Source of the DNA: Pseudobdellovibrionaceae bacterium
Lineage (GTDB): Bacteria > Bdellovibrionota > Bdellovibrionia > Bdellovibrionales > Bdellovibrionaceae
Assembly (NCBI GenBank): GCA_947449255.1
Contig: CANFQX010000012.1
Coordinates: 30,668 to 94,667 of the forward strand
Direction: 5' to 3'
DNA length: 64,000 bases
The notes under the pieces were generated by a model. That model was not told where the DNA came from. It searched no databases and saw nothing but the letters and a program-made list of their open reading frames with translations. The translations under genes were made by a program, and so were the position numbers. This document shows positions 4,070 through 64,000 of this stretch, one piece after another. The first letter of the stretch is position 1, and each line of letters opens with the position of its first letter.

Positions 4070-5094
4070 GTGAGCAGACTTCACCAATTCAGCCAGCGGC
4101 AGCGGCCCGACCAGCTCGTGTGATGTCAGGGATGAGGGTCTCGGGACGCCTTCATATTGGACATTTTTTTGGTGCACTCCAAAATTGGGTGAAGCTGCAG
4201 AGCGAATATGAATGTTTTTTCGGTGCGATGGACTGGCATGGAATGACCACGGCCTACAAATCACCTCAAGAAATCGGACCATGGACTCGAGAAATGATCG
4301 CGGAATTTATTGCCTGGGGAGTTGATCCCGAAAAAAGCACCCTCTTTATTCAAAGTCATGTGCCCGAGCATTTAGAGCTGTTTATGATTTTTGCAAATCT
4401 CACCCCGATGGGTTGGCTCGAGCGAGTCAACACTTGGAAAGATGCTGTGGATGAGATGAAGAGCACAGACACTCACAATTTAGGACGATTTGCTTATCCT
4501 GTCTTGCAAGCGGCTGATATTGCCATTTACAGGGCACAAAAGATTCCAGTGGGAGCCGATCAGGTTGCACACTTAGAAATTTCTCGTGAAATTGTGCGCA
4601 GGTTCAATCATCTGTACAAGGCCAAGTTGCCTGAGATGAATCCGCTCTTGACTGAAGTGCCCTTGGTGACTGGCTTAGATGGTCGTAAGATGTCAAAATC
4701 TTATGGCAACACTTTATATCTGACTGAAGATTCTGAAAAGGATTTAAAGAAAAAAGTGAACATGATGGTGACAGACACCGCGCGAGTTCGCCGCGAAGAT
4801 GTGGGTGAACCAACGCGCTGTTCAGTTTACGGTTATCATAAATTGTATTCAACGACCGAAGATTTAGAGTGGGTTGAGCAAGGGTGCCGTTCTGCTGGAA
4901 TTGGCTGTGGTGACTGTAAAGGTCGATTGGCAGCAAATATAGAAAAGATTTCTGCGGGTCCTCGCGAAAAGAAAAAAGAATTGTTGAACAATTCAAACCT
5001 GCTTGATTCAATTATCAATGCGGGCTGTGAAAAGGCTCGAAAAGAAGCGCAACTGACTTTGAAGATTGTGCGTAAAAGCATGAAGTGGTCTTGA
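4066..5094 (+). CDS. trpS: Tryptophanyl-tRNA synthetase
   Basis: HIGH and KMSKS motifs, YPVLQAADI, VPVGADQ-like IPVGADQ. Confidence 0.97.
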   Translation: MSEQTSPIQPAAAARPARVMSGMRVSGRLHIGHFFGALQNWVKLQSEYECFFGAMDWHGMTTAYKSPQEIGPWTREMIAEFIAWGVDPEKSTLFIQSHVPEHLELFMIFANLTPMGWLERVNTWKDAVDEMKSTDTHNLGRFAYPVLQAADIAIYRAQKIPVGADQVAHLEISREIVRRFNHLYKAKLPEMNPLLTEVPLVTGLDGRKMSKSYGNTLYLTEDSEKDLKKKVNMMVTDTARVRREDVGEPTRCSVYGYHKLYSTTEDLEWVEQGCRSAGIGCGDCKGRLAANIEKISAGPREKKKELLNNSNLLDSIINAGCEKARKEAQLTLKIVRKSMKWS

Positions 5095-19888: not shown

Positions 19889-21847
19889 ATGAATCAAAAT
19901 ACGGACCTAGGCAAAACACTTCCACGACGTCCTCTGAAAGGATTGCAGAGCGGATTGCAGCGAGGAAAGCTGCTGTTGCAACAGATAGAAAAACGTATTG
20001 AAAAACGGCTCAGTCCTTTCATTGTTGGGGCCTTCACACATAAAAAAAAGCTGCATATTTTTATGTCCAACTCAGATAAAAAATTGGCCTTGCTTGAGGG
20101 CAATGACAACGAAGAATACCAAGTTGCCCCAAGCACACTGCATTCCACGCTGCCATCCAAAGCCTGTCGCCTGATTCAATTGGATTCGATTGATAAAGGG
20201 CAATTTGCCGTGATGGTGTTGCAAAGAAAAGGTGTGGCGATTTCTTTGACAAAGGATCTAAAAAAATGGAGTCGACTTTTTTTTATAGGTAAAACTTCAG
20301 AGGGTCAAAATTTTAACAGTGGAGTTCTCATACCAGGGTTTCAAAAAGAGGGTTTGTATGTGATGCTGCTGGGCGGAAAAAAAGTGCAAATCGCCACTTC
20401 AAAAAATGCTCTGGACTGGGATTTGAATTATAAAGATGTCTTAGATATTCCCGTTTCCCAGAATGAGGAAGTCCATCTTGATTTCGCTAAGAAGTTGGCC
20501 AACGGAATTTTAATATCCTATCGGTTTATAAATCTTGAGGACGGAGAGATCAAACATCGTGTTCACATGGCTTTGCTTGACAGTCACGATATTTCACGAA
20601 TCCTGTGGCGCACTTCAAAGTCGGTATTTGAAAGCTCACCAGACTGGGGCTCTGCCCATTTTGCGGGGGCGGTGCTTTATCGGGGGCAAATTCACAGTTT
20701 TTGGAATACAGAGGGACTAGGAACTTTGAAAGTTTCTTATTCGATTGAAGATCTGCCTTTTCAATTGACTCCAGATCATGTTGTTGCAATTCAAAGGGCT
20801 CGCGAAAATCCTGTGATTTATCCTCGACCACAATTTTCCTGGGAGTCTTTTGCGACCTACAATCCAGCCGCTTTTTATGCACGGGGAAGGATTCACATTC
20901 TCTATCGGGCCCAAGGGTCTGATCTTATTTCAAGCATCGGCTATGCGAGCTCCAAGGATGGAGTCAACATTGATGAAAGGTCCGAGTCCCCAGTTTATCT
21001 GCCTCAAGAAGTTTTTGAATCCTTTCAAAAAGCATCGCCAGATCAAGTGGTGCAAAAATATGTTTCAGGAGGAGGCATTGCAGGTTGTGAGGATCCCAGA
21101 GTTACTTTAATTGGGGAGCGCTTGTACATGACCTACGTGGCCTTTGATGGTTGCAGCCCTCCACGTGCAGCGCTGACTTCGATTGCTCTGGAGGATCTCT
21201 TAGTCAAAAAATGGAATTGGCAAAAACCTGTTTTAATATCAGAGCCCGGGATTGTTAATAAAAGTGCAGTTATTTTTCCTGAAAAAATCAAAGGCAAGTT
21301 TGTGATGATGTATCGGATATTTCCCGATATTCAGATCGACTACCTGGATGATTTGAATTTTGATGGATCCAGGTGGCTGACAGAGAAGGCTCGCATTCCA
21401 GTTCGTGAAAATATGTGGGACAGTCGAAAGATTGGCGCAGGTGCACCTCCCCTTAAAACAGCCGAGGGTTGGTTGTTGATTTATTATGGAGTCGATGATC
21501 GCGACGATCGGTTTTACAAAATTGGAGCTATGCTTTTGGATCTTGAGGATCCTTCGAAGGTGCTTTATCGCTCTTCGACACCTATCTTGGAGCCTGAGGA
21601 TTGGTACGAAAATTCTGGATTTAAACCCGGGGTCGTCTATCCCTGTGGAGCTGTCTTGCACAATGAAAAAATATTTGTCTATTACGGTGGGGCTGATTGT
21701 GTTGTCTGTGTCGCGAGTCGAGACCTTCACAGTTTTATCGAAGCCCTGAAGTCAAATCATGACATCAAATTTTCAAAACAAAAAGTATTGAGGACTGAAG
21801 CCTATGAAACTCACACGAAATCAATTCAACCCTATTCTTTCGCCTGA
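19889..21847 (+). CDS. GH130-like (DUF377) glycosidase/phosphorylase with a divergent N-terminal region
   Basis: C-terminal half: ENPVIYP..WESFATYNPAA, GCEDPRV, NKSAVIFPEKI, KIGAGAPP, VVYPCGA, YYGGADC. Confidence 0.85.
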   Translation: MNQNTDLGKTLPRRPLKGLQSGLQRGKLLLQQIEKRIEKRLSPFIVGAFTHKKKLHIFMSNSDKKLALLEGNDNEEYQVAPSTLHSTLPSKACRLIQLDSIDKGQFAVMVLQRKGVAISLTKDLKKWSRLFFIGKTSEGQNFNSGVLIPGFQKEGLYVMLLGGKKVQIATSKNALDWDLNYKDVLDIPVSQNEEVHLDFAKKLANGILISYRFINLEDGEIKHRVHMALLDSHDISRILWRTSKSVFESSPDWGSAHFAGAVLYRGQIHSFWNTEGLGTLKVSYSIEDLPFQLTPDHVVAIQRARENPVIYPRPQFSWESFATYNPAAFYARGRIHILYRAQGSDLISSIGYASSKDGVNIDERSESPVYLPQEVFESFQKASPDQVVQKYVSGGGIAGCEDPRVTLIGERLYMTYVAFDGCSPPRAALTSIALEDLLVKKWNWQKPVLISEPGIVNKSAVIFPEKIKGKFVMMYRIFPDIQIDYLDDLNFDGSRWLTEKARIPVRENMWDSRKIGAGAPPLKTAEGWLLIYYGVDDRDDRFYKIGAMLLDLEDPSKVLYRSSTPILEPEDWYENSGFKPGVVYPCGAVLHNEKIFVYYGGADCVVCVASRDLHSFIEALKSNHDIKFSKQKVLRTEAYETHTKSIQPYSFA

Positions 21848-22769
21848 TTCCAACAATGAGTGGGAAAGTTTTGCTACCTTTAACGGCAATGTTTTTAAAA
21901 AAAAGGGAGCCGCTCACATGGTCTACAGAGCTATGTCAGAGTATCGTCGCGTTGGCGGAAAAGAGTTGAGAGTGTCCTCCATTGGGCACGCCGTTTCTCA
22001 AGATGGTGTCACCTTCCAGGATCGAAGTCTGCTGATCAGACCTGAACGCCCCTGGGATCGCTTCGGCTGCGAAGATCCAAGAGCTGTGCATATCGATGGA
22101 AAGACCATTGTCTTTTATACGGCCATCGGAGCCTATCCTTTTGTTTCGAGCCACATCCGTGTCGGTGTTGCTATTTTTGATAGCAAACCAGAATATCACC
22201 TCGTCACTCCTTTCAATGCCAAAGCCATGGCCATGTTTTCTGAAAAAATCAATGGCAAGTATGCGGTGATTCTGAGTGCAAACACGGACCTCCCGCCGGC
22301 GACAGTGGGTGTGGCGATGTTTGACCAGCTTGAAGAGTTATGGTCGAATGAATTTTGGACAAATTGGTATCAGCAACTTGCAGAGCATGCACTGCCTTTG
22401 CAAAGACTAGAAACAGATCAAATTGAAGTGGGCGCAGCTCCCGTGAAAGTGAAAGAGGGATGGCTTTTAATTTATTGCAGAATCCAAAACTATGGCAAAC
22501 CCAACATGATCTTTGGAATTGAAGCGGCCTTGTTAGATGGAACAAATCCAAAAAAAGTTTTAGCTCGCAGTCAAAATCCACTCTTGATTCCCAAAGAAGG
22601 CTATGAAGTTTATGGAACGGTCCCGAATGTTATTTTTCCCTCGGGGGCAATTATTGTGGGGGAAGAGCTGCGGGTTTATTACGGAGGTGCCGACACAGTG
22701 TGTGCTCTGGCCACTTGTCATTTGCCAACGCTTATGAAAAGTTTAATGAACATCTACGCAGCTTTTTAA
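21804..22769 (+). CDS. Single-domain GH130-like glycosidase; paralog of the N-terminal half of 27569-29500
   Basis: NPIL..WESFATFNG, GCEDPR, EVGAAP, NVIFPSGA, YYGGADT; overlaps the upstream gene by 44 bp. Confidence 0.85.
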   Translation: MKLTRNQFNPILSPDSNNEWESFATFNGNVFKKKGAAHMVYRAMSEYRRVGGKELRVSSIGHAVSQDGVTFQDRSLLIRPERPWDRFGCEDPRAVHIDGKTIVFYTAIGAYPFVSSHIRVGVAIFDSKPEYHLVTPFNAKAMAMFSEKINGKYAVILSANTDLPPATVGVAMFDQLEELWSNEFWTNWYQQLAEHALPLQRLETDQIEVGAAPVKVKEGWLLIYCRIQNYGKPNMIFGIEAALLDGTNPKKVLARSQNPLLIPKEGYEVYGTVPNVIFPSGAIIVGEELRVYYGGADTVCALATCHLPTLMKSLMNIYAAF

Positions 22770-23039
22770 ATATTTAATCGATAAGATTTCCCTGTCCTTA
22801 AAAAAACAAAAAAACTGCAAGCGGGCGATGGTGTCAAGAAATCAAGGATATGATTGACCGCATGAGAATTGCGCATAACAAATGCTATGAATACTTTGGG
22901 TAAGGTGTAGTCCAGAAGACCTAAAAACGGAATGCCTTAAAAAGTGAGATGAGCACACTACAATATGTCCCCGTGAAAGTTGATAAGTACCTTTATGGGT
23001 TAAGTCGCTGGAAAATAGTCAGTGCGAAAAGGAGAATTT

Positions 23040-23069
23040 ATTTGCGCATAATTTTGCATACAGGCAAAT
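23040..23069. repeat. 30-bp imperfect palindrome, copy A
   Basis: ATTTGCGCATAATTTTGCATACAGGCAAAT; 27/30 identical to the copy at 26702. Confidence 0.8.
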
Positions 23070-23221
23070 TAAAAGGGTGAACTTTGCAGTACGGTATTCA
23101 TGTCTTTTTAATACTGGATCAGTTTAGCCTGCATGCAAATCGCTTTTTATCAAAGATCATTGTTTCTTTCTTGGTCACGGTTCACCGTTTTTTACCGGGC
23201 AATGAAGAAATGAGCGCTATT

Positions 23222-23381
23222 AAAACAGGCCCCTTAAATTGTTGATGGCGGTTTTTTTTACAGCTGCCCTCGGTTTCAGATCGTCTGGCCATCCTGTGCA
23301 GCCTTCCTCAAGCGCATCGTGCGCTTGAGGGCAAAGTATGTACTCGGGCTAGTCTGATCAACAATTTTAGGGGCCAGTTTA
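23222..23381. mobile_element. MITE-like non-autonomous element, 160 bp
   Basis: TIRs AAAACAGGCCCCTTAAATTGTTGAT (23222-23246) and ATCAACAATTTTAGGGGCCAGTTTA (23357-23381) match at 22/25; flanked by a perfect 9-bp direct repeat AGCGCTATT (23213-23221, 23382-23390); no coding capacity. Confidence 0.8.
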
Positions 23382-23407
23382 AGCGCTATTAAATATTCAA
23401 AGCTTTT

Positions 23408-23457
23408 ACATAGACATACATAGAAGTGCATATCGATACATTGACAAACATAGACTT
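23408..23457. repeat. Five degenerate 10-bp tandem units
   Basis: ACATAGACAT/ACATAGAAGT/GCATATCGAT/ACATTGACAA/ACATAGACTT. Confidence 0.6.
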
Positions 23458-23564
23458 GATCGGAGAATCCGAACGTTAATGTTGCCTTTACAGACCTTTG
23501 CCAAAAAGATCCCTAATTAAAAAATATTTTTTCAAAGACTTTTTTTCTATTTTCATTTAAGACT

Positions 23565-23795
23565 CCTATTTCCTATTTCCTATTTCCTATTTCCTATTTC
23601 CTATTTCCTATTTCCTATTTCCTATTTCCTATTTCCTATTTCCTATTTCCTATTTCCTAATTCCTAATTCCTATTTCCTATTTCCTATTTCCTATTTCCT
23701 ATTTCCTATTTCCTATTTCCTATTTCCTATTTCCTATTTCCTATTTCCTAATTTCTAATTTCTAATTTCTATTTTCTATTTTCTATTTTCTATTT
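23565..23795. repeat. 7-bp tandem repeat (CCTATTT)n, 33 units
   Basis: Counted: 13x CCTATTT, 2x CCTAATT, 11x CCTATTT, 1x CCTAATT, 2x TCTAATT, 4x TCTATTT. Confidence 0.97.
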
Positions 23796-24112
23796 TTTTT
23801 GTGAGCCCAGATCAAATGTAGATCTCCGATCGGAGAAGCGTTGCAATATAAAATTGCTTTTTAAGAATTTTTAATTTGTGACTAAAAATGAAGAGTTTTT
23901 TTGGAAAAAGTCATTGACCTAAATAGGGGTTTAAATACGCCCGCTAGGGCTCAAATCTCAATTTTAAAGAGCATTTTCTTCAATTCAACCAAGGTTCCCA
24001 GGAATAAAAACAAGATCGCTAGGAGCCCCTCTGGGAGCGCTTCTTTTGTCTCTCAAATTCCGTGTTATAACACTTTCACAGGTTGGACCAAAGGCAATCA
24101 AAGAGGTGAAGG

Positions 24113-25348
24113 ATGAGGATGAATACGAACATTTTAAGTTTCCAAAAGTCAGAGGCTCTAGAATTAAATAACTTGAAAAAACTCAGCGATGCGGCACTGA
24201 TTGATGGATTTAAAAATCTGATTTTGCGTGAAAAACGATTGGGCGATCTGGTCTTGTTGAATTTGCAAGAAATGAATTCCAGAAGAATTTATGCGCAGCT
24301 TGGTTTCGGAAGTCTTTTTGAATTTTTAGTTAAATATTTTCATCTCAGTGAATCCTCGGCCTATCAGCGAATCAACGCAATGAAATTAATTCAATCCATT
24401 CCCGAAGCCAGAGCCGCACTTGTTTCAGGGGAAACCAACCTGTCAACCATGGCGGCCACTCAGGGATTTATACGCAAACTTGAATCTGAAAAAAAAGCAG
24501 TCTTAAGTTTTCAAGAGAAAAAAGACATTTTTGATGCCGTTAAAGGTAAAACCCAAAAAGAGGCGAAGGCAGCCTTTGTCACCATAAATCCTGTGGCAGC
24601 GCTTCCTGCCAATAAAGAAAAGCCACTAACTGCAAATCACACCTTGTTGCAAGTGACTGTCGATCAAGAAACTTTCCAGCTATTGCAAGAAGTTAAAAGT
24701 CTTTTGAGTCACGAAATCCCTGACGGGGACGTAAATAAAATATTGAAAAAAATATTTAAAGAGAGTCTAGAAATTTTAAAAAACAAAAAAGGCCGCAGCA
24801 AAGGATCGAAAATTCAGACAACGGAGCCTCAGCGCTTTGTGACAGAAAGTAAAGTTGAAGAAATAGTTCATCAGCGCCATCGCACAGAAATGAAAGTTGA
24901 GATTATAGACCATCAATGCATAGCTACTGATTGTAAACTTCAATCCACAGATTATAAACTTCAAACAACTGACATTCAATGTCCTGGGAACAATCATCCA
25001 TCTTCAACCAATGATTCTAATTTTAGAAAAACAAATCAAAAATATCGAGGGACTAATCTTAAAATAAAACACCGATTCTCGAAGCACTGCGAAGCCAAAA
25101 AATCTTCTCGATTTATTCCGATCGAGACAAGACGTCTTGTTTTTCAAAAAGCGCAAGGCCGCTGTGAATTTATTGGCTCAGATGGAAAGCGCTGTGAAAG
25201 TCATTATCAGTTGGAAATTGATCATCAGTTGGCTTGGAGTCAGGGCGGTTCGCATGATGAAACTAATTTGAGATGTCTTTGTAGAGTTCACAATACTTTC
25301 CGTACCAAAGAAACCCACGGTTTTTGGTGGAGTGATCTTTACCGCTGA
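24113..25348 (+). CDS. HNH endonuclease domain protein (long helical N-terminus, repeat linker, C-terminal HNH)
   Basis: RFIPIETRRLVFQKAQGRCEF...RCES...LEIDH...QGGSHDETNLRCLCRVHN: zinc-binding HNH; RBS GAGGTG upstream. Confidence 0.88.
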   Translation: MRMNTNILSFQKSEALELNNLKKLSDAALIDGFKNLILREKRLGDLVLLNLQEMNSRRIYAQLGFGSLFEFLVKYFHLSESSAYQRINAMKLIQSIPEARAALVSGETNLSTMAATQGFIRKLESEKKAVLSFQEKKDIFDAVKGKTQKEAKAAFVTINPVAALPANKEKPLTANHTLLQVTVDQETFQLLQEVKSLLSHEIPDGDVNKILKKIFKESLEILKNKKGRSKGSKIQTTEPQRFVTESKVEEIVHQRHRTEMKVEIIDHQCIATDCKLQSTDYKLQTTDIQCPGNNHPSSTNDSNFRKTNQKYRGTNLKIKHRFSKHCEAKKSSRFIPIETRRLVFQKAQGRCEFIGSDGKRCESHYQLEIDHQLAWSQGGSHDETNLRCLCRVHNTFRTKETHGFWWSDLYR

Positions 25349-25493
25349 TTGATTGAAAGTCGCGCTGGTGAATCCATCATCATTTCTTCAAACGGAGATG
25401 AAATCTTATCTTTGCAGAAAAAAGGAAGGTCGGCAGAAGCAAAAAAACCTATTCACTCTTGACGTTGTAAAAGCATTTTGATCACATAAAAAA

Positions 25494-26669
25494 ATGGTAG
25501 CAAAAATATTTCTCCTCACTTTAATTTTTTCTATTTCGGATAGAGTTTGTGCGCAATTAAATCCCCTTGGTGCCACGAACAACCAATTTGCTTTTGAAAT
25601 CTACAAGACCCAATCGAAAGTTGAGGGTAATTTATTTCTTTCGCCGTTGAGTATTTATTCAGCCTTAGCGATGACATCTGCGGGTGCCCAAAAAGAGACC
25701 CTAAATCAAATGATTAAGACCTTGCACCTGCCTCAGAGTTACCATTCAGATTTCGCACAACTGCTCGGTCATCTTAAGGGAAATCAGGATTATCAACTAG
25801 CCATTGCTAATCGAATTTGGACTAGCACAGGAAAGGCGTATCGACCTCAGTTTTTGAAAATGCTATTAGATCATTACCATGCTTCACCGGTGAGTTTGGA
25901 CTTTAAGCATAATACTGAAGAATCACGAAAGTTGATGAATTCTTGGATTGCCCAACAAACTCAGAATAAAATTATAGACCTGCTTCTGCCCGGAATTATT
26001 GATCGTAATACAGAGATGGTTTTAACAAATGCCATTTATTTTAAAGGCAAATGGGCACTTCCATTTAGCAAGGAAATGACGAGGGAGGGGGATTTTCAAC
26101 TGGCCTTATCTAAAACAAAAAAGGCTAAATTTATGCACATGAACAAGGAGTTGAGATATTTTGAAAATAATGAGCTACAACTTGTAGAGATGATTTATCA
26201 GGGTCATCAGCTTGCGATGGATGTTTTGTTGCTAAGGCCAGGCATTGATCTAAACTCAGTGGAGCAAAAAATCAGTGGATCCAGTTTCTCTGCTATGACC
26301 AACAAGCTTTCAACTGTTCCAGTGGCGTTGACGCTTCCAAAATTTAAAGCTGAATCACAATTTGAACTTTCCGAGAACCTAAAAGCACTTGGAATGACAC
26401 TTCCCTTTGATGAAGATAATGCAAATTTTAGTGGAGTAAGAGATTTCGTGAATGAGAAGATATTTATTTCAAAGGTCATACATAAAGCTTTTGTGGATAT
26501 TAGTGAAGAAGGTACCGAAGCTGCTGCGGCTACAGCCGTCATTATGACTAAAGCGGGGGCCGTAACTCCGCCAAAAATATTTAATGCCAATCATCCATTT
26601 TTATTTATGATTCGCGATCTAAAAACCGGGGCGATTTTATTTTTAGGTCGTTATTCCAATCCGGCCTAG
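25494..26669 (+). CDS. Secreted serpin (serine protease inhibitor)
   Basis: Signal peptide; NLFLSPLSIYSALAM, LTNAIYFKGKW, LPKFK, hinge EEGTEAAAATA, FNANHPFLFMI..FLGR. Confidence 0.96.
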   Translation: MVAKIFLLTLIFSISDRVCAQLNPLGATNNQFAFEIYKTQSKVEGNLFLSPLSIYSALAMTSAGAQKETLNQMIKTLHLPQSYHSDFAQLLGHLKGNQDYQLAIANRIWTSTGKAYRPQFLKMLLDHYHASPVSLDFKHNTEESRKLMNSWIAQQTQNKIIDLLLPGIIDRNTEMVLTNAIYFKGKWALPFSKEMTREGDFQLALSKTKKAKFMHMNKELRYFENNELQLVEMIYQGHQLAMDVLLLRPGIDLNSVEQKISGSSFSAMTNKLSTVPVALTLPKFKAESQFELSENLKALGMTLPFDEDNANFSGVRDFVNEKIFISKVIHKAFVDISEEGTEAAAATAVIMTKAGAVTPPKIFNANHPFLFMIRDLKTGAILFLGRYSNPA

Positions 26670-26701
26670 GTTTAAAATCACTTGTCATTTGCCCGCACGA
26701 G

Positions 26702-26731
26702 ATTTGCGCATGATTTTGCATACAGATAAAT
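26702..26731. repeat. 30-bp imperfect palindrome, copy B
   Basis: ATTTGCGCATGATTTTGCATACAGATAAAT; 3 nt beyond the stop codon of the minus-strand MNT gene. Confidence 0.8.
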
Positions 26732-26734
26732 GTA

Positions 26735-27055
26735 TTAAAACAGAACAATTCCCTTTGTGCGAATTTCATTGAGGATTGGTGATGCCGCATTTGGATTGAT
26801 GTAATCAGCAAGTGAAATGGGAATCCCCTCAAAATTGGGGTTAATGTGCGTCGCAATGAGATTTAAAGCGGCGCCTTCTGCAAAGCGACTTTTTCCATAG
26901 TCTCTGGAAACTACGGCAATATCAATATCGCTTTCGGGCCGAGCTCTATTGTCGGCATAGGATCCAAATAATATTAGCAAATCTGGATGAATATTGTTTT
27001 TCTTAAGTTCAGTTCTCAGTCTAAGGACATCTATTTTAATTGTGCCAATATCCAT
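26735..27055 (-). CDS. Minimal nucleotidyltransferase (MNT), putative antitoxin
   Basis: 106 aa; LILFGSYADNRARPESDIDIAVV = GS-x10-DxD. Confidence 0.9.
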   Translation of the reverse strand: MDIGTIKIDVLRLRTELKKNNIHPDLLILFGSYADNRARPESDIDIAVVSRDYGKSRFAEGAALNLIATHINPNFEGIPISLADYINPNAASPILNEIRTKGIVLF

Positions 27056-27441
27056 AGTTGTATCCGTTGGCCTTCCGCTAAAAATTTGGATGTGAATTCA
27101 TCAGTAGCAATCTTTTGAATCTCTTCGATTTCATTCGGATATCTGGTTGCTAAGTTAAATTCATTTATATCTGACAAAAGTTGCGAATCAGGTAGTTCAA
27201 TATTAACTCCCGCTTTTTGTGCCAACATCAACAGATTATGGGTCAATGGTGCAAATTGATTCATATTTTGAACAAAAAGTGCTTTAAGTCCTTTTTCTAT
27301 ACTCAAATGGAGAAAAAAAAGTGCATGTGCATTTTTCTTCGCAAGACAAGCAATGTCAATTGCAGCCTGGAGATCTCCTAAGCAACCCTGTCGCCAATAC
27401 TCTATGTTCTTTATTTTCTGCTCTTCAGTCATCAACTTCAT
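27031..27441 (-). CDS. HEPN domain protein, putative toxin partner of MNT
   Basis: EYWRQGCLGDLQAA, HLSIEKGLKAL, THNLLMLA, TRYP; overlaps MNT by 25 bp. Confidence 0.88.
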   Translation of the reverse strand: MKLMTEEQKIKNIEYWRQGCLGDLQAAIDIACLAKKNAHALFFLHLSIEKGLKALFVQNMNQFAPLTHNLLMLAQKAGVNIELPDSQLLSDINEFNLATRYPNEIEEIQKIATDEFTSKFLAEGQRIQLWILAQLK

Positions 27442-27536
27442 CCGATACGATAATTAGAGTTACTGTCCAAATTACAGTCCAAATTATAGATCAGCAATAA
27501 AGTCTTAGGCAATTGATAAACCTCTTAGCCCTCAAT

Positions 27537-27566
27537 TTTCGCGCAAGATTTTGCATGCAGGTAAAC
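27537..27566. repeat. 30-bp imperfect palindrome, copy C
   Basis: TTTCGCGCAAGATTTTGCATGCAGGTAAAC; 24/30 to copy B; 2 nt beyond the stop of the GH130 gene ending at 27569. Confidence 0.7.
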
Positions 27567-27568
27567 TC

Positions 27569-29500
27569 TTAACGAACATCTCCACAACTCTTTAAATATT
27601 TAATCAGCTTAGAGAGCGAGCCCGTGGCCAGACAGGTGCAACTGTCCGCTCCGCCATAAAAAATATGCAGGTTGTCTTTCCAAACTCCCCAGCCGCAAGG
27701 GAAGACCACATTGCGAACTTGACCGAAGCGTTCATAGGCCTCTTCAGGTTCTAAGATGGGATCCAGGGAGCGTCCTATAATTTGCGAGGGCTCATTCAGA
27801 TCCAGCAGCAAAGCACCCAAACGGTAGTGCCGGTCGTGAGTGCCGACACCGTGGTAAAGGAGCAACCAGCCCTCTGGTGTTTTTATTGGTGGGGTGTTTG
27901 CGCCAATTTTTATTCCCTCCCAGCTGTCTTTTCTTGGGGGGATGACGGTTTGTGATTCCAACCATTGTGAAGAGCCATCAAAATTAAGTTCAGGGCGATA
28001 ATCGATCACGATGTCGGGCTCGATCCGGTGAATGATAACAAAATTGCCGCGAATTTTTTCTGGAAAGAGGCAGGCATCTTTGTCAGCAATGCCCGGAGGC
28101 GAAATCAGAACAGGCTTTGTCCAGGATTCCCATTTTCTAGCTCTAAAGTCTTCGAGCCGGATTGAAGTCATGGCCACGCGGGGCGGGCTGTCTCCACGGT
28201 AGGCAGTGTAGAGCATATACACTTGATCATTGATTAAGGTCAGTCTTGGATCCTCGCACCCAGAGTGACCTTGGGCATAAGCCTTCTCTTCAAAATATTC
28301 CCGCGGTCGATAAATGGGCTCTGACTCTCTGCTGATAAATTCTGTTGTGTCTGCAGAAAAAGTGGCCAGTCCCATGTAGGAGGTTCCGGTGTTGTCTTGG
28401 CCTCGATAGACCACTTCAAGCTTGTCGCCATCTTGAAGCACTCCTGGATTGTAAACTCCAAGTCTTTCCCAAGGATGATCCCAACGAGAGGTCAAGACTG
28501 GATTGCGAAGGGATCTGTTCAGAATAGGAAGACTGACAGATTCGTAAACAAGGCTTTTCATGAGTGTCGGCAAATGGCAGGTGGCCAGGGCACACACCGT
28601 GTCTGCACCGCCGTAGTAAACATGAAGTTCTTCTCCTTCAATAATTGCCCCTGATGGAAAAACCACATTGGAGACGGTGCCATTGATTTCATAGCCTTCC
28701 TTAGGCACTAAGAGCGGATATTGGCTGCGAGCTAAAACTTTTTTTGGATTTTTTGCATCTAACAAGGCAGCTTCAATTCCAAAGACAGTCCCCGGGTGAC
28801 CATAGTTTTGAATTCGGCAGTAAATTAAAAGCCAACCCTCTTTCACTTTCACGGGAACTGCGCCCACTTCAATTTGATCCGTATCGAGTCTGCGTAAATG
28901 CAGAGCATGATGAGGAAGATCTAAATACCATTTATTCCAGAATTCCCGGGACCACAGGTCTTCTAGTTTTTCAAAGGTGGCAATGCCCACGGTTGAAGGC
29001 GGTAGATCTGTATTCACACTTAAAATCACTGTGTACTTGCCATTGATTTTTTCAGGAAACATCGCCATGGCTTTGGCATTGAAGGGAGTGACCAGGTGAT
29101 ACTCAGGCTTGCTGTCAAAATTATTAAAAATAGCAACGCCGACTCGGATATGATCAGAAACAAAAGGATAGGCTCCGATAGCTGTATAAAAAAGGAATTT
29201 TTTTTCCTCGAGGTTGGTGACTCTGGGGTCTTCACAACCAAAGCGATCCCAGGGACGTCCGGGATGAATCAAGAGGCCTTCTTTTTGAAAGCTCACTCCG
29301 TCCTTGGAGGTGGCGTGCCCTATGGAGGACATTCTTAATTCTTTGCTCTCAAGCTGACGATGGTCAGAAATGGCCCGATAGAAAAGATGATAGACTTCGC
29401 CTTCTTGGCAGACATTTCCGTTGAAGGCTGCAAAGCTTTCCCACTCATTTCTTAAGTCAGGAACAAGAATTGGATTTGATATATTTCTTGTGAGTTGCAT
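27569..29500 (-). CDS. Tandem two-domain GH130-like glycosidase/phosphorylase
   Basis: Two copies of NP(I/V)L..W, GCEDPR, P(S/C)G and (Y/F)YGGAD(T/S). Confidence 0.88.
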   Translation of the reverse strand: MQLTRNISNPILVPDLRNEWESFAAFNGNVCQEGEVYHLFYRAISDHRQLESKELRMSSIGHATSKDGVSFQKEGLLIHPGRPWDRFGCEDPRVTNLEEKKFLFYTAIGAYPFVSDHIRVGVAIFNNFDSKPEYHLVTPFNAKAMAMFPEKINGKYTVILSVNTDLPPSTVGIATFEKLEDLWSREFWNKWYLDLPHHALHLRRLDTDQIEVGAVPVKVKEGWLLIYCRIQNYGHPGTVFGIEAALLDAKNPKKVLARSQYPLLVPKEGYEINGTVSNVVFPSGAIIEGEELHVYYGGADTVCALATCHLPTLMKSLVYESVSLPILNRSLRNPVLTSRWDHPWERLGVYNPGVLQDGDKLEVVYRGQDNTGTSYMGLATFSADTTEFISRESEPIYRPREYFEEKAYAQGHSGCEDPRLTLINDQVYMLYTAYRGDSPPRVAMTSIRLEDFRARKWESWTKPVLISPPGIADKDACLFPEKIRGNFVIIHRIEPDIVIDYRPELNFDGSSQWLESQTVIPPRKDSWEGIKIGANTPPIKTPEGWLLLYHGVGTHDRHYRLGALLLDLNEPSQIIGRSLDPILEPEEAYERFGQVRNVVFPCGWGVWKDNLHIFYGGADSCTCLATGSLSKLIKYLKSCGDVR

Positions 29501-29942: not shown

Positions 29943-30293
29943 TCTTAACTCCTCGCAGGTCAGAAAAATTTGACAGGTCCTTCTTTGCGCTTTCGCAAAT
30001 GTTGGTGCTTTTGGATCCTTTGTCGAGCGAATTTTATTAATTTAAGGTGTTTGAATTTAAATGGAAGAAAAAACAGGACAAGTTGATCAATGACATTTTT
30101 TTTAAAATTATTTTCGATTTTTAAACGAATCTTTCCTTTAGTGATTAAATCGAATCGCAAAATGTGATTCTAACTTCAGGTTCTATAATAAAAGAAACGC
30201 GAGTTTTATTGCTCAAGGAATTTAGGTATTCTAATCCAGCCAAGCCCTGGCAAGCCCCTCTCATTAAAAGGGTTGAATCTCAGAGGAGTTTTC

Positions 30294-30707
30294 ATGAGTA
30301 CAAAATCTTTTTTTTGCAAGGTCCTTCTCATATTCTCAAGTCTCGTTGCCTTGATTTATTTGGATGGTTGCGGCTACGCACTTGATGCGATTCACCCGAC
30401 GACGCTGTCAAACGATGGCGGAAGTTCAAGTCAGTCGTCCACTGTACCTGCAAATCAAATTGATTATGCAGTGATTAGAACAGAGATTTTTGCTCCTCAC
30501 TGCTATGAATGCCACTCTTTGGCAGGTGGCAATGCTGGGGGAATTAATCTTGAAACCTATTTGAATATAAAAAGTAATCTGAGTGATATTCAAATTGATA
30601 TGGCCGACGATTCAATGCCAAAGGACAGGCCACCTCTGTCCAGTGCAGAAAAAAATTTACTAGCCTTGTGGATCTCTCAGGGAGCGCCCGAATTCGTGAT
30701 TCCTTAG
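30294..30707 (+). CDS. Exported/lipoprotein mono-heme c-type cytochrome (planctomycete cytochrome C-like)
   Basis: CYECH heme motif, GGINLETY, SMPKDRPPLS..EKNLLALWISQGAP; RBS GAGGAG before ATG 30294; hydrophobic N-terminus ending LDGC. Confidence 0.78.
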   Translation: MSTKSFFCKVLLIFSSLVALIYLDGCGYALDAIHPTTLSNDGGSSSQSSTVPANQIDYAVIRTEIFAPHCYECHSLAGGNAGGINLETYLNIKSNLSDIQIDMADDSMPKDRPPLSSAEKNLLALWISQGAPEFVIP

Positions 30708-30913
30708 GCAGCGCTTTAGGGCAAGGGCTTCAACCGAAGACTAGGCTTGGGACGAAATGTTCTGGCCTTCTCAACTGAGGATGCTTCATCCTAAGCCACT
30801 TTTAAAAAAATGTGTTTCAAAACTCACCTCCAAACGCGTCTCAATGCCAATAGAGGCAGCCTTCATGTTAAGCTCAAAGTCATGAATTTTTAAAATTCTT
30901 TGAAGGAGTCAAT

Positions 30914-32293
30914 ATGTTGAACGTGAGCTCTAAAAAAAATGAATCCACCTCAGGGATCTGGACGGTCATCGGTGCGTCGAGTGCGGGGACACTGATAGAG
31001 TGGTATGACTTTTATATCTTTGGTTCCTTGGCTACGATCATTGCCGCACAATTTTTTCCTAAAGGAAATGAAACCGTCGCGCTCTTAAGCACCCTGGCAA
31101 CTTTTGCGACTGGATTTATCGTGCGCCCCTTTGGCGCTTTGATTTTTGGCCGTATAGGAGACCTCGTCGGTCGCAAATATGCCTTTATGGTGACATTGCT
31201 GATTATGGGTGGGGCCACCACGGCGATTGGGCTCTTGCCCACTTATGAGCAGGTTGGGATTTTTGCGCCCATCGGACTGCTGGTCTTGCGCTTGTTGCAG
31301 GGCTTAGCTTTGGGCGGTGAATACGGAGGAGCGGCCACCTATGTGGCTGAGCACAGCCCCGATGGTAAAAGGGGATACTACACAAGCTTTATTCAGACCA
31401 CGGCAACCTTGGGTTTGTTTGTTTCATTGGGTGTTATTCTTGCCACTCGCTTAGGTACAGGAGAAGTGGCCTTTAAACAGTGGGGTTGGCGCATTCCATT
31501 TGTAGTCTCCGTGGCTTTGGTGGCCTTTAGTTATTATATCCGTCGTCGAATGAGTGAGTCCCCCGTCTTTCAAAAAATGAAAGCCTCGGGAAAGGCCTCA
31601 AAATCGCCTCTCAGGGATAGTTTTTTAAATCCAGAAAATCGCAAAATGGTTTTGATCGCCTTGTTTGGCGCGACGGCAGGACAGGGAGTTGTCTGGTATA
31701 CGGGGCAGTTTTATGCTCTCTATTATTTACAGACAGTCCTGAAAGTTGATTTTGTTATCGCGAATATGGTGATCGCTATTGCTCTGTTGCTTGCCACACC
31801 TTTCTTTGTGGTGTTTGGAGCCTTGTCAGATAAAATTGGACGAAAAAAAATCATGCTCTCTGGAATGGTTGTGGCCGCACTCACTTACTATCCCATCTAT
31901 CGTGCAATGGAGCATTACTCTGGGTGGAATCCTTTGGAGCCCAATGCGACAGCCCTGAATCCCAATATGTTTGCCTTAACAGCCTTAGTGTTTATTCAAG
32001 TTCTTTATGTGACTGCGGTCTACGGGCCTATCGCGGCTTTTTTGGTGGAATTGTTTCCGGCCAATATACGCTACACTTCAATGTCATTGCCCTATCATAT
32101 TGGCAATGGAGTCTTCGGTGGGCTGGTGCCCTTTATAGGGACGGCTATGGTGGCCTCGACCGGAAATCACTTCGCCGGATTGATTTATCCAATTTCGATC
32201 GCGGTGATCACGGTGTTCATTGGAGGCTTTTTAATTAAAGAGAAAAAAGATGTGAAATGGTTCGATGATAATAAAGGCTCTGATGCGGCTTAA
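30914..32293 (+). CDS. MFS transporter, metabolite:H+ symporter (MHS) family
   Basis: GTLIEWYDFYIF, RPFGALIFGRIGDLVGRK, LQGLALGGEYGGA, WGWRIPF, ELFPANIRYT. Confidence 0.95.
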   Translation: MLNVSSKKNESTSGIWTVIGASSAGTLIEWYDFYIFGSLATIIAAQFFPKGNETVALLSTLATFATGFIVRPFGALIFGRIGDLVGRKYAFMVTLLIMGGATTAIGLLPTYEQVGIFAPIGLLVLRLLQGLALGGEYGGAATYVAEHSPDGKRGYYTSFIQTTATLGLFVSLGVILATRLGTGEVAFKQWGWRIPFVVSVALVAFSYYIRRRMSESPVFQKMKASGKASKSPLRDSFLNPENRKMVLIALFGATAGQGVVWYTGQFYALYYLQTVLKVDFVIANMVIAIALLLATPFFVVFGALSDKIGRKKIMLSGMVVAALTYYPIYRAMEHYSGWNPLEPNATALNPNMFALTALVFIQVLYVTAVYGPIAAFLVELFPANIRYTSMSLPYHIGNGVFGGLVPFIGTAMVASTGNHFAGLIYPISIAVITVFIGGFLIKEKKDVKWFDDNKGSDAA

Positions 32294-32399
32294 CACAGGG
32301 CGCTTAAATTAAAAGATGGATAGGGGAGGAATTTATTTTTCGTCTATCCATTAAACATCAATATTTTAATGGAGCAAATTCAGTGCATTCAATTTTTCT

Positions 32400-56671: not shown

Positions 56672-56909
56672 TTTGTTCCTTAGCTAAATATTTTTTTGAC
56701 CAGTCGACGTCTATTGTTTCAATTTGATTCGTGGCCCGAAATGAGAACTTAAATACCTTTCTGTGAATTTCTACCAAAATAAAATTAGAAACAAGCTTTT
56801 GATGAATTATTGGAAAAAATTTGATAAAATGAGGCTCAATTTAAAAAAAAAGGAAAATACCCAGCAATGAATTTCGCGCTGACCTATAAAATTTAAAAAA
56901 AGGAGAATT

Positions 56910-57620
56910 ATGGCTAATCCAACTTTCAATGAAAAATTATTGAGTCGAATTGGGGTCAATGAGGGAACCGAAGTGATGACCATCTCGGGGACGATCAATA
57001 AAACAGGCCTCTTGCTATTAATAGCTGCCTTCGGCAGCTATTTCGGTTGGACTACTGATAACTTTCTTTTTGCCATGATATTTTTTGTCACAAATATTGC
57101 CTTGGTTTTTGCTATCAGTTTTGGTCCGCAGAGGGCGCAGTATCTCTCTCAGGTATATGCCTTCAGCGAGGGTTATATTCTTGGTGTTATTTCGCTCATG
57201 TATGCAAATAAATATCCAGGCATTGTGAGTAATGCCATGATTTCAACTTTTGCAGTCCTAGCTTGTATGTTGGGGCTTTATCGCTATCGAATTATTCAAG
57301 TGACTGAAAAACTTCGCAGTGTGGTCATCTCAGCCACCCTTGCCATTGGCTTGACCTATTTGATAGGTATGGTGATGAGGCTGTTCGGATCTGAAATCCC
57401 TCTTTTTCACGAATCTTCTCCCATTGGCATAGCCATTTCTGTCGGAATTGTGCTAGTGGCTGCATTTAATTTATTGTTGGATTTTGATATGATTGAAAAC
57501 CTGAGTGATCGGAGTGCGCCCGCCTATATGGAGTGGTACTCTGGCTTTGCTCTCTTAGTCACCTTGGTTTGGCTTTATTTAGAGATTTTAAGGCTGCTTT
57601 CTAAACTCAGTAAACGCTAA
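56910..57620 (+). CDS. Bax inhibitor-1/YccA family membrane protein
   Basis: About 7 TM; MTISGTINKT, NLLLDFDMIE, EWYSGFALLVTLVWLYLEILRLL. Confidence 0.9.
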   Translation: MANPTFNEKLLSRIGVNEGTEVMTISGTINKTGLLLLIAAFGSYFGWTTDNFLFAMIFFVTNIALVFAISFGPQRAQYLSQVYAFSEGYILGVISLMYANKYPGIVSNAMISTFAVLACMLGLYRYRIIQVTEKLRSVVISATLAIGLTYLIGMVMRLFGSEIPLFHESSPIGIAISVGIVLVAAFNLLLDFDMIENLSDRSAPAYMEWYSGFALLVTLVWLYLEILRLLSKLSKR

Positions 57621-58221
57621 AAAAGATTAGGAGGAGATGAAGGAGTGATTATTTTTCGATTCATCATCTCCTTTCTTTTCTTTCCTTAAAAAAAACTAAT
57701 TTCACCCAAATCGCAGAGTTTCTGTGGTAACAGGTTAGACTCTATCTCCTGCTGAATAGGAATAGATCCTGCCAGGACAGATTCTGGATCTAAAAGGCAG
57801 ATTTCTGATGTGTAGATAAACTCCATGCATTCTGCTTTGATCATGGCGAGGTAGCTCTTATTGGATAAGACTTTAAGTGTTCGAGCAAGTTTCATTTTGA
57901 ATATGAACATGATTCCAATTAAAAACCTAGTTTACCTGAGTAGGTTCACTCGTCTCGCGATTTATTCAGGGCGAAATCATTAAAACGCGCAGACTTGAGA
58001 GGCGCGATATTGTGTCGCCAGTCATTTTAAAGAAATCAATATACACACCCACCTCGCCGGGTTTCTGTGGAAACACAAGTTCGATGGGTGATATCATCAC
58101 CAGATGGAAATCAAGTTGTCGGCGTTCAGTTTTTGGCGTTCAGTGCATAATCGGGTGACCCAGTAAGTTGCCATGACTTAGCCCTTTATTTTTTTACCAA
58201 TTGTAATTAGACTTGTTAGCA

Positions 58222-63833: not shown

Positions 63834-64000
63834 ATCTAATAAACCTCCGCGAAAGCTATGCCCAGTATACCAGATACCCCTTTAAAAACACAAGGGGCTA
63901 TTAACAAGATGTAGGCGAGCCTCTTTTAACACCGAGGGCTGCCATTAATTGATAGACACCACTATGGGAGGTTCGATGAATGCTCGAAAAATAAAAAAAG

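Follow-up and report, generated by a model that had tools for sequence, protein, structure and literature searches.

A mosaic locus in a strain-variable island

The analysis of the 1.3-kb gap in front of an HNH endonuclease gene reveals a locus that is probably best explained as a mosaic inside a strain-variable island, its left part consisting of unrelated repeats and the rest forming the control region of a selfish HNH cassette with a tandem array. The locus lies in a 64-kb window, the whole stretch of Bdellovibrionota DNA (64,000 nucleotides) that was analysed. Every element named in an earlier note on this DNA was found at or near the place given for it; the ordered 1.3-kb system that the note had built from them is not a single system, since its left part is made of a repeat, termed E1, and an independent high-copy MITE, and the elements as a whole fall into at least three unrelated things. 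The note's other suggestion, an insertion hotspot gathering unrelated debris, holds for the left ~600 bp (E1 repeat and MITE). Likewise, its selfish HNH unit with upstream arrays stands as far as a dispersed, multi-copy, selfish-looking gene is concerned, but not in the mechanisms that were specifically proposed. The gap was rightly described as lacking a credible ORF: no conserved ORF is present in 22770-24112, where the longest span 43-71 aa, the 43-aa ORF having lost its start and gained a stop in the paralogous locus L003 and the 71-aa ORF being disrupted by indels between paralogs. A search of plasmid DNA gave no match for the locus, and no relative was found in IMG/VR. The sequencing runs in which the locus occurs are all DNA runs.

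The island occupies 22780-27569 (4.79 kb) between convergent GH130 genes and is bracketed by 36-bp imperfect direct repeats, identical at 31 of 36 positions. The left repeat (22744-22779, plus strand) is a copy of the convergent GH130 gene's 3' end, and from this copy the 321-aa GH130 ORF takes its stop codon and its final seven sense codons (MNIYAAF); the right repeat (27570-27605, listed on the plus strand) is where the 643-aa GH130 gene, encoded on the minus strand, has its genuine 3' end. The comparison with empty sites in relatives that had been called for was informative, as a relative with an 81% identical GH130 (L048) carries one repeat copy, overlapping convergent GH130 stops and no island, and its GH130 junction thus represents the empty allele. 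Outside the HNH cassette, the island carries as cargo a serpin gene (25494-26669, plus strand; Pfam Serpin, E 6e-106), which is absent next to the other HNH paralogs, and a toxin-antitoxin-like nucleotidyltransferase/HEPN pair (26735-27441, minus strand; Pfam NTP_transf_2/Polbeta and HEPN) that PADLOC reports as PDC-S09-like.

Unrelated repeats on the left side

The left filler of the island (22780-23174) contains a left-arm-only site (22866-22893), the E1 repeat (about 22920-23090), which ends in copy B of a 30-bp motif (23040-23069), and an inverted half-site (23122-23143), and it gives no structure signal on folding (z about 0). E1 is a lineage-specific repeat whose second copy, inverted, adjoins another HNH paralog (L003 6366-6508, 80% identity). 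In metagenome X2, the left filler reaches a depth of ~2.5x, and a junction joins 22944 to 23482 on opposite strands, the same arrangement as in L003. The sequence at 23040-23069, previously described as a 30-bp bulged palindrome, is a real motif but only weakly palindromic (-4.8 kcal/mol, z -1.4), and it matters as a repeat, not as a palindrome. Two further copies, both direct and on the plus strand, are copy C (26702-26731; 27/30, blast E 4e-5), between the convergent serpin and nucleotidyltransferase stops, and copy D (27537-27566; 23/30), 3 bp from the right direct repeat.

Three direct copies of this motif (at 23040, 26702 and 27537) together with partial ones, all confined to the island and placed at module borders, raise the question of Xer/dif modules of the IMEX or pdif-like kind, in which the motifs would be XerC/D sites delimiting an HNH-plus-serpin module and a nucleotidyltransferase/HEPN module. 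Toxin-antitoxin modules are typical cargo of pdif elements, and the left arm of the motif, TTTGCGCATAA, resembles the XerC arm of proteobacterial dif. Measured against the E. coli dif assumed here as reference, which may differ from that of Bdellovibrio, the left arm resembles GGTGCGCATAA but the right arm, which should be the XerD arm, fits TTATGTTAAAT poorly. Moreover, the motif copies are all direct where pdif modules alternate, the motif core is missing from every Bdellovibrionota species representative, and the borders of the island are the 36-bp gene-end repeats and not the 30-bp motif. We therefore regard Xer/dif modules as very unlikely. The "dif-like" label that had been given to the 28-mer at 22868 is to be dropped as well: its common part with the 30-bp motif is the 10-mer TTGCGCATAA only, the site is deleted in a near relative, and no replication terminus lies here, since the GC skew is positive from one end of the window to the other. 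A true dif at the terminus was rejected also from the position of hflX, which on complete Bdellovibrio chromosomes falls at ~44-53%, close to the terminus without coinciding with it. As a candidate conserved site, the 30-bp motif was rejected after an exact-core scan of 185,579 species genomes returned four chance matches, all in other phyla.

To the right of the filler lies a 157-bp element (23225-23381) that had been called MITE-like and is a genuine MITE by its terminal inverted repeats, its flanking direct repeat, its high copy number and the existence of uninterrupted sites elsewhere. The inverted arms measure 24 nt (23223-23246 and 23357-23380) and are 92% complementary, and the 12-bp direct repeat AGCGCTATTAAA flanks the element at 23213-23224 and 23382-23393. 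Contig word depth of the MITE is 40-90x baseline in four metagenomes, in which many distinct flanks begin exactly at its edges (23223/23224 and 23380-23382). The uninterrupted, MITE-free site is seen in the paralogous locus L020 and at an X6 loose end at 23382, which continues in L020-type sequence. The MITE is independently mobile and separate from the HNH cassette.

Dispersal and limits of the HNH cassette

From about 23175 rightward, the DNA is the HNH gene's own upstream region, common to at least four paralogous HNH cassettes in differing contexts. Its long form opens with a distal start (23175-23224, plus strand) that is collinear with the MITE-free L020 (2485-2534) and resumes past the MITE as a distal upstream region (23382-23563, plus strand; 81% identity to L020, and 88% to L003 from 23482), found at 2-8x baseline depth. 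This distal region holds the five 10-bp units of the earlier note, which were recovered as (TACATAGACA)x4.9 at 23407-23455 with 64% matches and correspond to a homologous array of 5.8 copies in L020, as well as a second GATCGGAGAA (23458-23467), a promoter-like TTGCCA-16-AAAAAT from the promoter scan (23498-23525) and a T-rich seed with 16-18-bp duplications. On the other side, the cassette ends at 25349-25367 (plus strand), the last bases in common with the paralogs.

The HNH cassette is dispersed, and its gene is multi-copy in Bdellovibrionota, as other MAGs and one metagenome show, with at least six loci in MAG_1466, at least four in bin134 and at least 17 in Ga0154020. Within the window lineage, four contexts are occupied (GH130|serpin, HflX|malic enzyme, OMP|599-aa gene and GT9|sigma54 activator), and the paralogous coding sequences are 83-89% identical in nucleotides. 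Occupied and empty alleles occur among relatives at both the GH130 junction and the malic|HflX gap, the latter measuring 100-190 bp in most Bdellovibrio and 2.7 kb with the cassette present. No recent transposition of the cassette was seen, the paralogs being 11-17% diverged and each at a fixed site in several samples. Peredibacter genomes have 10-13 HNH genes each, some at strain-specific sites (PMC13147790).

A rival reading is that of a classical transposon, with Box 1, a conserved block of the HNH leader, as terminal inverted repeat, the arrays as insertion junctions and the HNH protein as transposase. In one locus (L126), Box 1 does recur in inverted form 210 bp past the stop, with 25 of 28 bases, two others (L124 and L125) have 100% identical sequence rightward of the array and unrelated sequence leftward of it, and contigs often end at Box 1. 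However, none of the 16 other loci has an inverted Box 1, and at one in 17 the block was rejected as a terminal inverted repeat; target-site duplications were not found around the cassettes; and the upstream homology of the paralogs is nested, reaching 23175, 23482 or about 23515. In addition, the un-expanded array seed of the paralogous locus L022 sits within conserved sequence, and therefore the array is internal rather than junctional. Taken together, these observations make a classical transposon highly improbable. Because the ends of the paralogs are nested and not fixed, the cassette would instead spread and be homogenised via nuclease-stimulated recombination or gene conversion, and not by a transposase.

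A conserved leader and a DUF222-like HNH protein

The core leader of the cassette (23808-24112, plus strand) is present in all paralogs at 71-91% identity, above the 61-85% at their 4-fold sites. It holds Box 1 (23823-23849), in which a hairpin or palindrome is followed by GAGAAG..TGCG, then a TTGTGAC box (~23881), a predicted extended -10, TGtTATAAC (24064-24072), about 40 nt before the ATG, and the RBS GAGGTGAAGG (24103-24112). The perfect 14-bp palindrome reported earlier, TCTCCGATCGGAGA at 23823-23836, is confirmed and belongs to Box 1. Each of the 17 family loci inspected, including those with proteins as little as ~40% identical, has a recognisable Box 1 and extended -10 (TGnTATAA). Box 1 may serve as a protein-binding operator.

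The HNH gene (24113-25348, plus strand; 411 aa) is intact, as had been claimed, and its product scores 27.7 bits with Pfam HNH, for which the cut-off is 21.4. In the protein, an all-alpha N-domain that is DUF222-like (~20-225) is joined through a disordered linker prone to repeats (227-330) to the HNH domain (~335-397), whose fold resembles McrA, Gme nickase and the HNH of Cas9. Across 25 members, the catalytic and zinc residues C351, C361, D370, H371, N385, C390 and N394 are invariant and H393 is nearly so. The all-alpha model of the N-domain is confident, and a comparison with solved structures found none resembling it, the best non-HNH matches being spurious GPCRs and a weak SopB. Pfam gives no DUF222 match in the window protein itself, and four of the 25 family members have matches below threshold (best E 0.0034). 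Two proteins that match the family profile over its full length (P0075 and P0135, E about 1e-69 to 1e-80) score 28.8 and 31.0 bits for DUF222, above the Pfam gathering score of 24.4; DUF222 homology is therefore supported transitively, not directly, and the HNH protein appears to be a distant member of the DUF222-HNH (REP13E12-type) family. PADLOC returned no defence-system match for it, and its PHROGs matches are to generic HNH families only.

An RNA-guided nuclease, which would be the most valuable reading if true, is made unlikely by these data. The earlier note had pointed to RNA scaffolds such as those of IscB/omegaRNA and HEARO, and in an arrangement of that type the leader, the array or both would be transcribed into a structured RNA that binds and directs the nuclease. 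The likeness lies in a conserved non-coding leader of ~300 bp directly 5' of an HNH-containing ORF, as with the omega RNA of IscB loci, in the conservation of this leader beyond that of synonymous sites and in a weak NCBIfam match to IscB. That match (NF040563), however, reaches 22.5 bits where the cut-off is 175, and it covers residues 337-400, i.e. the HNH domain only, and the RuvC, PLMP and bridge-helix region is absent, the N-domain being DUF222-like. On the RNA side, Rfam contains no matching family even at E<=5, the leader folds no better than shuffled sequences (z -0.64), and the RNAalifold energy for ~300 nt is -11.8 kcal/mol, its covariation term (+0.98) being unfavourable. What is conserved clusters in blocks of DNA type, namely Box 1 and the extended -10, most of the leader lies upstream of the predicted promoter, the arrays are predicted to be mostly unpaired, and an IS200/605 context is lacking. 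We consider an RNA scaffold extremely unlikely and set aside this suggestion of the note. Neither the leader nor the E1 repeat nor the 30-bp motif gave a positive result when searched for an RNA family or structure.

Hypervariable arrays and their possible role

The 33x7-bp array of the earlier note was verified as (TCCTATT)x33.1 at 23564-23795 (plus strand) with 97% matches, a hypervariable simple-sequence array and the only strong tandem array in the window. At the same position, the paralogs have (CTACTTC)x25 in L020, (CAACTTTT)x5 in L003 and an un-expanded seed in L022, giving 33, 25, 5 and 0 units per paralog. The array grew in situ from an un-expanded seed. When homologs of the HNH gene were examined for shared upstream arrays, as the note had advised, the ~300-bp leader and short arrays were found to recur down to ~40% identity. 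Short tandem repeats lie beside or inside HNH genes in three lineages with unrelated units (TCCTATT, CTACTTC, CAACTTTT, GATT, TAGA/GTTG, TGTAAA, TTTGAA and GATTCAGG), and every one that lies in a coding region has a period divisible by three. Such arrays are strongly enriched around family members, with 13 in 21 kb of HNH flanks versus 3 in 167 kb of the same loci, a count in which the homologous arrays of the window, L020 and L003 enter as separate observations. Background DNA (391 kb from 34 Bdellovibrionota genomes) contained no array of period <=8. About half of the family loci (L006, L007, L010, L018, L022 and the Ga0154020 clade) are without an array, which is therefore not required for the HNH gene. 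Assemblies break at or near the array, as do orthologous contigs, and the single strain comparison at hand (L124 versus L125, 6.5 versus ~2.5 units) may reflect a MAG mis-join.

The array most likely functions as a slippage-prone spacer that would tune expression of the nuclease. The proposed cassette order runs from the distal T-rich region through the slippage-prone array, Box 1 and the extended -10 (TGnTATAAC) to the ORF. Array length would shift by slipped-strand mispairing, and the array may work like a rheostat, a contingency-type spacer that separates upstream elements from Box 1 and the core promoter, its length setting the amount of a potentially toxic nuclease that is made. In other lineages, the spacer array would lie inside the 5'UTR; in the window, the array precedes the predicted core promoter by ~270 bp, which is unusual for a spacing switch.

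It is possible, though we think it rather doubtful, that the arrays are functionless by-products of T-rich spacer DNA slipping neutrally, a process that HNH-made nicks or breaks in the vicinity of the HNH gene, or frequent gene conversion among paralogs, might make worse. The varied positions of the arrays (far upstream, 5'UTR, N-terminal coding region and linker), their unrelated units and the array-free half of the loci would fit this, as would the nested 16-18-bp duplications in the same region and the restriction to multiple-of-3 periods in ORFs, which is expected of a local mutational bias filtered by selection. REP13E12 loci are, moreover, recombination hotspots (PMC13061034). Against it stand the long, near-perfect arrays (33, 25, 23 and 17 units) in otherwise array-free genomes, lengths that usually need selection or a very strong local mechanism, and the fact that three lineages carry an array in almost the same place, immediately 5' of Box 1. 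A more speculative proposal, which we hold to be unlikely, is that DUF222-HNH cassettes, including those of REP13E12 type, form a transposase-free selfish class in which the nuclease binds and nicks its own Box 1. Gene conversion of the cassette and its copying to ectopic sites would then follow from this, and the arrays by Box 1, in the 5'UTR and in the ORF may be footprints of nick and repair that became expression rheostats secondarily.

Comparison with known systems

The DUF222-HNH family is large, comprising 4,013 clusters (50% identity) in a profile search at E<=1e-30. The Bdellovibrionota branch offers testable cis elements in Box 1, the extended -10 promoter and the recurrent hypermutable arrays, which provide a route to the recognition, control and spread of the nuclease. 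On the practical side, metagenome assemblies of predatory bacteria are interrupted by the cassettes and the MITE, at positions that can be predicted.

Free-standing homing endonuclease genes of phages are of HNH and GIY-YIG types, e.g. mobE and the seg genes. They resemble the Bdellovibrio unit in being small promoter-plus-ORF units in intergenic gaps between conserved genes, in presence/absence polymorphism and in having no recombinase of their own. The Bdellovibrio unit differs from them in being chromosomal, multi-copy per genome and without an IMG/VR relative, and in carrying a large DUF222 domain instead of the usual small DNA-binding modules.

The array finds its closest parallel in the expression of hmw1A of H. 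influenzae, which is tuned by a 7-bp upstream SSR, (ATCTTTC)n (PMC12721329). Both cases involve a long, near-perfect heptanucleotide array upstream of a gene, an array size that varies between copies and, in some relatives, a position within the 5'UTR. In contrast to hmw1A, the window array is upstream of the predicted core promoter, and Bdellovibrio is a free-living predator rather than a host-adapted pathogen. No long hairpin of the HMW type, formed between the repeats and a G-rich arm, is predicted for the window array, and a hairpin of the array with purine-rich sequence downstream was rejected, as the window offers only one 7-mer complement (AAATAGG at 23921) and the paralogs none.

The REP13E12 family of Mycobacterium tuberculosis (Gordon et al. 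1999, as cited in PMC10589994) is the relevant comparison for the cassette as a whole. The DUF222-HNH (REP13E12-type) family has been known since 1999 with its function still unassigned (PMC13061034), and its elements are repeated gene-conversion hotspots (PMC10589994, PMC13061034). The differences are that the sequence relationship is distant and the link transitive, that the host phylum is another one, that a prophage attachment site is not evident at the Bdellovibrio cassette, and that its Box 1, extended -10 and recurrent arrays are not described for REP13E12 in the literature searched. The two nonetheless have in common a helical DUF222-type N-domain followed by a C-terminal HNH domain, and dispersed, multi-copy, transposase-free and recombination-prone paralogs without an assigned function.

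A strain-variable island at the GH130 junction

HflX at the right window end is 84–89% identical to Bdellovibrio spp., and the window therefore derives from a Bdellovibrio. Relatives were found by searching with the adjacent 643-aa GH130 protein, and one of them (L048, 81% identical) has GH130_652 and GH130_321 facing GH130_643, both convergent stops overlapping. In the window, this junction, empty in L048, is occupied by 4.79 kb (22780–27569). Besides the 1.3-kb non-coding stretch and the HNH gene that follows it, this interval carries a serpin gene and a nucleotidyltransferase/HEPN pair; no recombinase gene was found in it. The island is bracketed by imperfect 36-bp direct repeats (22744–22779 and 27570–27605, 31/36 identical) that are the 3′ end of GH130_643. 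Together, the empty junction and the bracketing repeats indicate that the whole region is a discrete insertion/deletion polymorphism. More distant relatives (L049, L073) carry two GH130 genes in tandem, so the junction is also an old rearrangement point.

The tandem genes of these distant relatives encode 652-aa and 643-aa proteins, and the 321-aa GH130 ORF duplicates, in inverted and truncated form, the N-terminal half of the 643-aa gene (window 19889–22769, 27569–29500); the old inverted-duplication junction is the exact island position. The serpin gene carried by the island of this predatory bacterium is full-length (25494–26669; Pfam E 6e-106; hydrophobic N-terminus); a 95%-identical strain has it too, and L048 lacks it. 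The 12-bp tandem repeat TTACAGTCCAAA, located upstream of the HEPN gene, varies in copy number between strains, with 2.2 copies in the window (27460–27486) and 3.2 in the close relative L001 (3626–3664). Two further strain-level differences were seen: window 29953–32395, 2.4 kb with an MFS sugar-transporter gene (30914–32293), is replaced in the 95%-identical strain (L001 6131–6896) by 0.77 kb with a 179-aa ORF, and window 56695–58147, carrying a Bax-inhibitor-1-like gene (56910–57620), differs by an indel from L004 530–1323.

Mosaic composition of the 1.3-kb stretch

The earlier note had described ordered elements lacking a credible ORF in front of an intact HNH gene, and repeat and ORF finding over the window bore this out: the listed elements are all real, the gap between the GH130 stop and the HNH start holds only ORFs of 43–71 aa, none conserved in related copies, and the HNH gene is an intact ORF (24113–25348, 411 aa). 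Tandem Repeats Finder returned (TCCTATT)x33.1 at 23564–23795 (97% matches), the sole strong tandem array of the 64-kb window, and (TACATAGACA)x4.9 at 23407–23455. The 14-bp palindrome TCTCCGATCGGAGA lies at 23823–23836, and the repeat finder placed inverted 24-nt arms at 23223–23246 and 23357–23380 with a 12-bp direct repeat outside them. The window contained no tRNA and no Rfam family at threshold. The choice between accumulated debris and a single system, both proposed before, divides along the stretch, with unrelated repeats making up its left ~600 bp and upstream DNA of the HNH gene its right ~900 bp.

When metagenome contigs were aligned to 22300–23555, depth over 23224–23391 reached 40–90 times that of the surroundings in four runs, and many different flanks started exactly at the ends of this 157-bp element, a genuine high-copy MITE. 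The uninterrupted target ...GAATGAGCACTATTAAATATTC... is present in the HNH paralog L020 and in a contig of metagenome X6; the HNH upstream DNA was therefore the MITE's insertion site, and AGCGCTATTAAA was duplicated in the process. To its left lies E1, a ~170-bp repeat ending in the 30-bp motif ATTTGCGCATAATTTTGCATACAGGCAAAT. Inverted E1 directly adjoins another HNH copy (L003), and a contig of metagenome X2 carries the same L003-type junction.

The 30-bp motif has two further direct copies at 26702 and 27537, both within the island, and is absent from the remaining 59 kb of the window; it is an island-associated, lineage-specific repeat. Its description as a palindrome at 23040 holds only in part, as the element is real but barely palindromic, with a hairpin not conserved among copies. 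A Xer/dif reading, prompted by the dif-like 28-mer at 22868, was not accepted and is unlikely because no GC-skew switch was found within the window, no Bdellovibrionota species genome scanned contains the motif core, the 28-mer is deleted in a close relative and the motif is such a weak palindrome.

A nuclease family related to DUF222-HNH proteins

In the alignment, the N-domain of the HNH protein is conserved and its low-complexity linker hypervariable, and the catalytic and zinc residues of the HNH domain are invariant. AlphaFold gave a confident all-alpha N-domain (residues ~20–160, pLDDT 80–95), a disordered linker (227–330) and a confident HNH domain. The linker-coding DNA (window 24737–24997; L003 7848–7891) contains 21-bp and 12-bp repeats, and linkers differ between paralogs chiefly through large in-frame indels. 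Foldseek and PDB profile searches matched the HNH part only (McrA, Gme nicking endonuclease, Cas9 HNH). A full profile search returned full-length matches at E<=1e-30 to 4,013 cluster representatives, some passing the Pfam DUF222 threshold, and four close-family members match DUF222 below threshold; these relatives indicate that the family is a distant DUF222-HNH branch. No relatives were found in PADLOC, plasmids or IMG/VR.

Dispersal of the HNH cassette

The closest homologs (68–90% protein identity) were found in the same metagenomes in four genomic settings: that of the window (L001), between HflX and malic enzyme (L003–L005), between an OMP and a 599-aa gene (L019–L021), and between GT9 and a sigma54 activator (L022–L023). 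The DNA shared among copies starts upstream of the array and ends ~19 bp beyond the stop codon, with nested left limits at ~23175 (L020), 23482 (L003) and ~23515 (L022). The right window end is syntenic with the L003 context (90.6% identity up to base 63996); immediately beyond it there is probably a second copy. At least 4 and at least 6 copies were counted in other MAGs and at least 17 in one metagenome, many at contig ends; a published comparison lists 10–13 HNH genes in Peredibacter genomes, at partly strain-specific sites (PMC13147790).

The malic enzyme–HflX gap measures 100–190 bp in most Bdellovibrio genomes versus 2.7 kb where the cassette sits, and distant DUF222-HNH family members occupy it in two other genomes (loci L093 and L096). 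Across L078–L111 this gap is an insertion hotspot: many genomes have 0.1–0.2 kb there, the B. bacteriovorus/HCB group ~1.1 kb and others 2.5–5 kb. Separately, a 48%-identical family member (L046 3306–5001) lies between GH31 paralogs of 829 and 853 aa arranged in tandem, a second case of the cassette between duplicated glycoside hydrolase genes.

Conserved cis elements upstream of the gene

The ~300-bp core leader is 71–91% identical between paralogs, consistently above 4-fold degenerate sites (61–85%) and below codon positions 1+2 (90–95%). Two blocks were present in 17/17 loci inspected and persist down to ~40% protein identity: Box 1, C(A/T)CCG-N3-7-(A/G)AGAAG-N2-4-TGCG, at the left leader edge, which in the window includes the 14-bp palindrome, and TGnTATA(A/C/T), an extended -10 consensus, 35–45 nt before the start codon. 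These blocks look like protein-binding and promoter DNA rather than RNA structure.

The proposed RNA scaffold gained no support: the leader's folding was no stronger than that of shuffled sequences (z -0.64), RNAalifold gave -11.8 kcal/mol with an unfavourable covariation term, and a permissive Rfam scan was empty. An RNA-guided nuclease is accordingly unlikely, the NCBIfam IscB match covering only the HNH portion, far below cut-off. Of 17 loci, only L126 (3898–3925) has an inverted Box 1 copy (25/28 bases), placed 210 bp after the HNH stop codon, which makes a transposon bounded by terminal inverted repeats unlikely. A (TCTAA)x25 array (L126 6005–6131) follows 2.3 kb later, at the margin of the analysed locus.

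Short tandem arrays around HNH genes

At the position of the window array, L020 carries (CTACTTC)x25 and L003 (CAACTTTT)x5. In L022 this position is occupied by just the un-expanded T-rich seed, and the array therefore grew in place. Elsewhere in the family, in the MAG_1466 locus L008, (TAGA)12(GTTG)23 lies upstream of Box 1, and (TGTAAA)17 (4806–4907) separates the -10 from the RBS; L009, from the same MAG, carries (TTTGAA)4 in the 5′UTR and in-frame (CAATAC)10 right after the ATG (4883–4946), and L014, also MAG_1466, in-frame (TACTAA)5 (4889–4920). L016 has (GATTCAGG)4.8 in the 5′UTR and a 15-mer x3.5 in the ORF, and in a third Bdellovibrio lineage Box 1 is immediately adjacent to (TTGA)6.5 and (TGAT)17. 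Repeat units show no relationship from one lineage to another, and periods inside ORFs are multiples of three only.

In HNH flanks, 13 arrays (score >=60) were found in 21 kb, compared with 3 in the 167 kb making up the rest of the same loci, and none of period <=8 occurred in 391 kb from 34 Bdellovibrionota genomes. Arrays are missing from about half of family loci and from the whole Ga0154020 metagenome clade. The link between upstream repeats and the HNH gene proposed earlier is thus real and strong, yet not obligatory. The main rival to a role for the arrays is a local mutational process that leaves them behind as by-products without function.

The L008 (TGTAAA)17 array reads as 17 consecutive ATG-TAA start-stop mini-ORFs, and the in-frame hexanucleotide arrays that immediately follow the start codon in both L009 and L014 encode (Asn-Thr)n at the protein N-terminus. 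Two MAGs (L124 2203, L125 222) are 100% identical over 4.1 kb from inside a (TTGA) array and unrelated to its left, reflecting either a true breakpoint or an assembly mis-join at the repeat.

Proposed model and comparison with known systems

In the functional model, slipped-strand mispairing would alter array length, which may in turn tune nuclease expression, and Box 1 is a candidate operator or recognition site. The cassette may be spread and homogenised by recombination, possibly stimulated by the nuclease itself. These cis elements now offer testable handles on a large family of orphan nucleases.

The closest functional analogue of the array is the (ATCTTTC)n upstream repeat of hmw1A (PMC12721329), although the RNA hairpin mechanism of that system is not predicted at the window array. 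The cassette as a whole is a variant of an already known, uncharacterised kind of element, of which REP13E12 of M. tuberculosis is the named DUF222-HNH example, repeated, without defined function and among the most active gene-conversion loci of its genome (PMC10589994, PMC13061034). The nested, undefined ends of the cassette and the recombination behaviour of REP13E12 are both consistent with the proposed spread.
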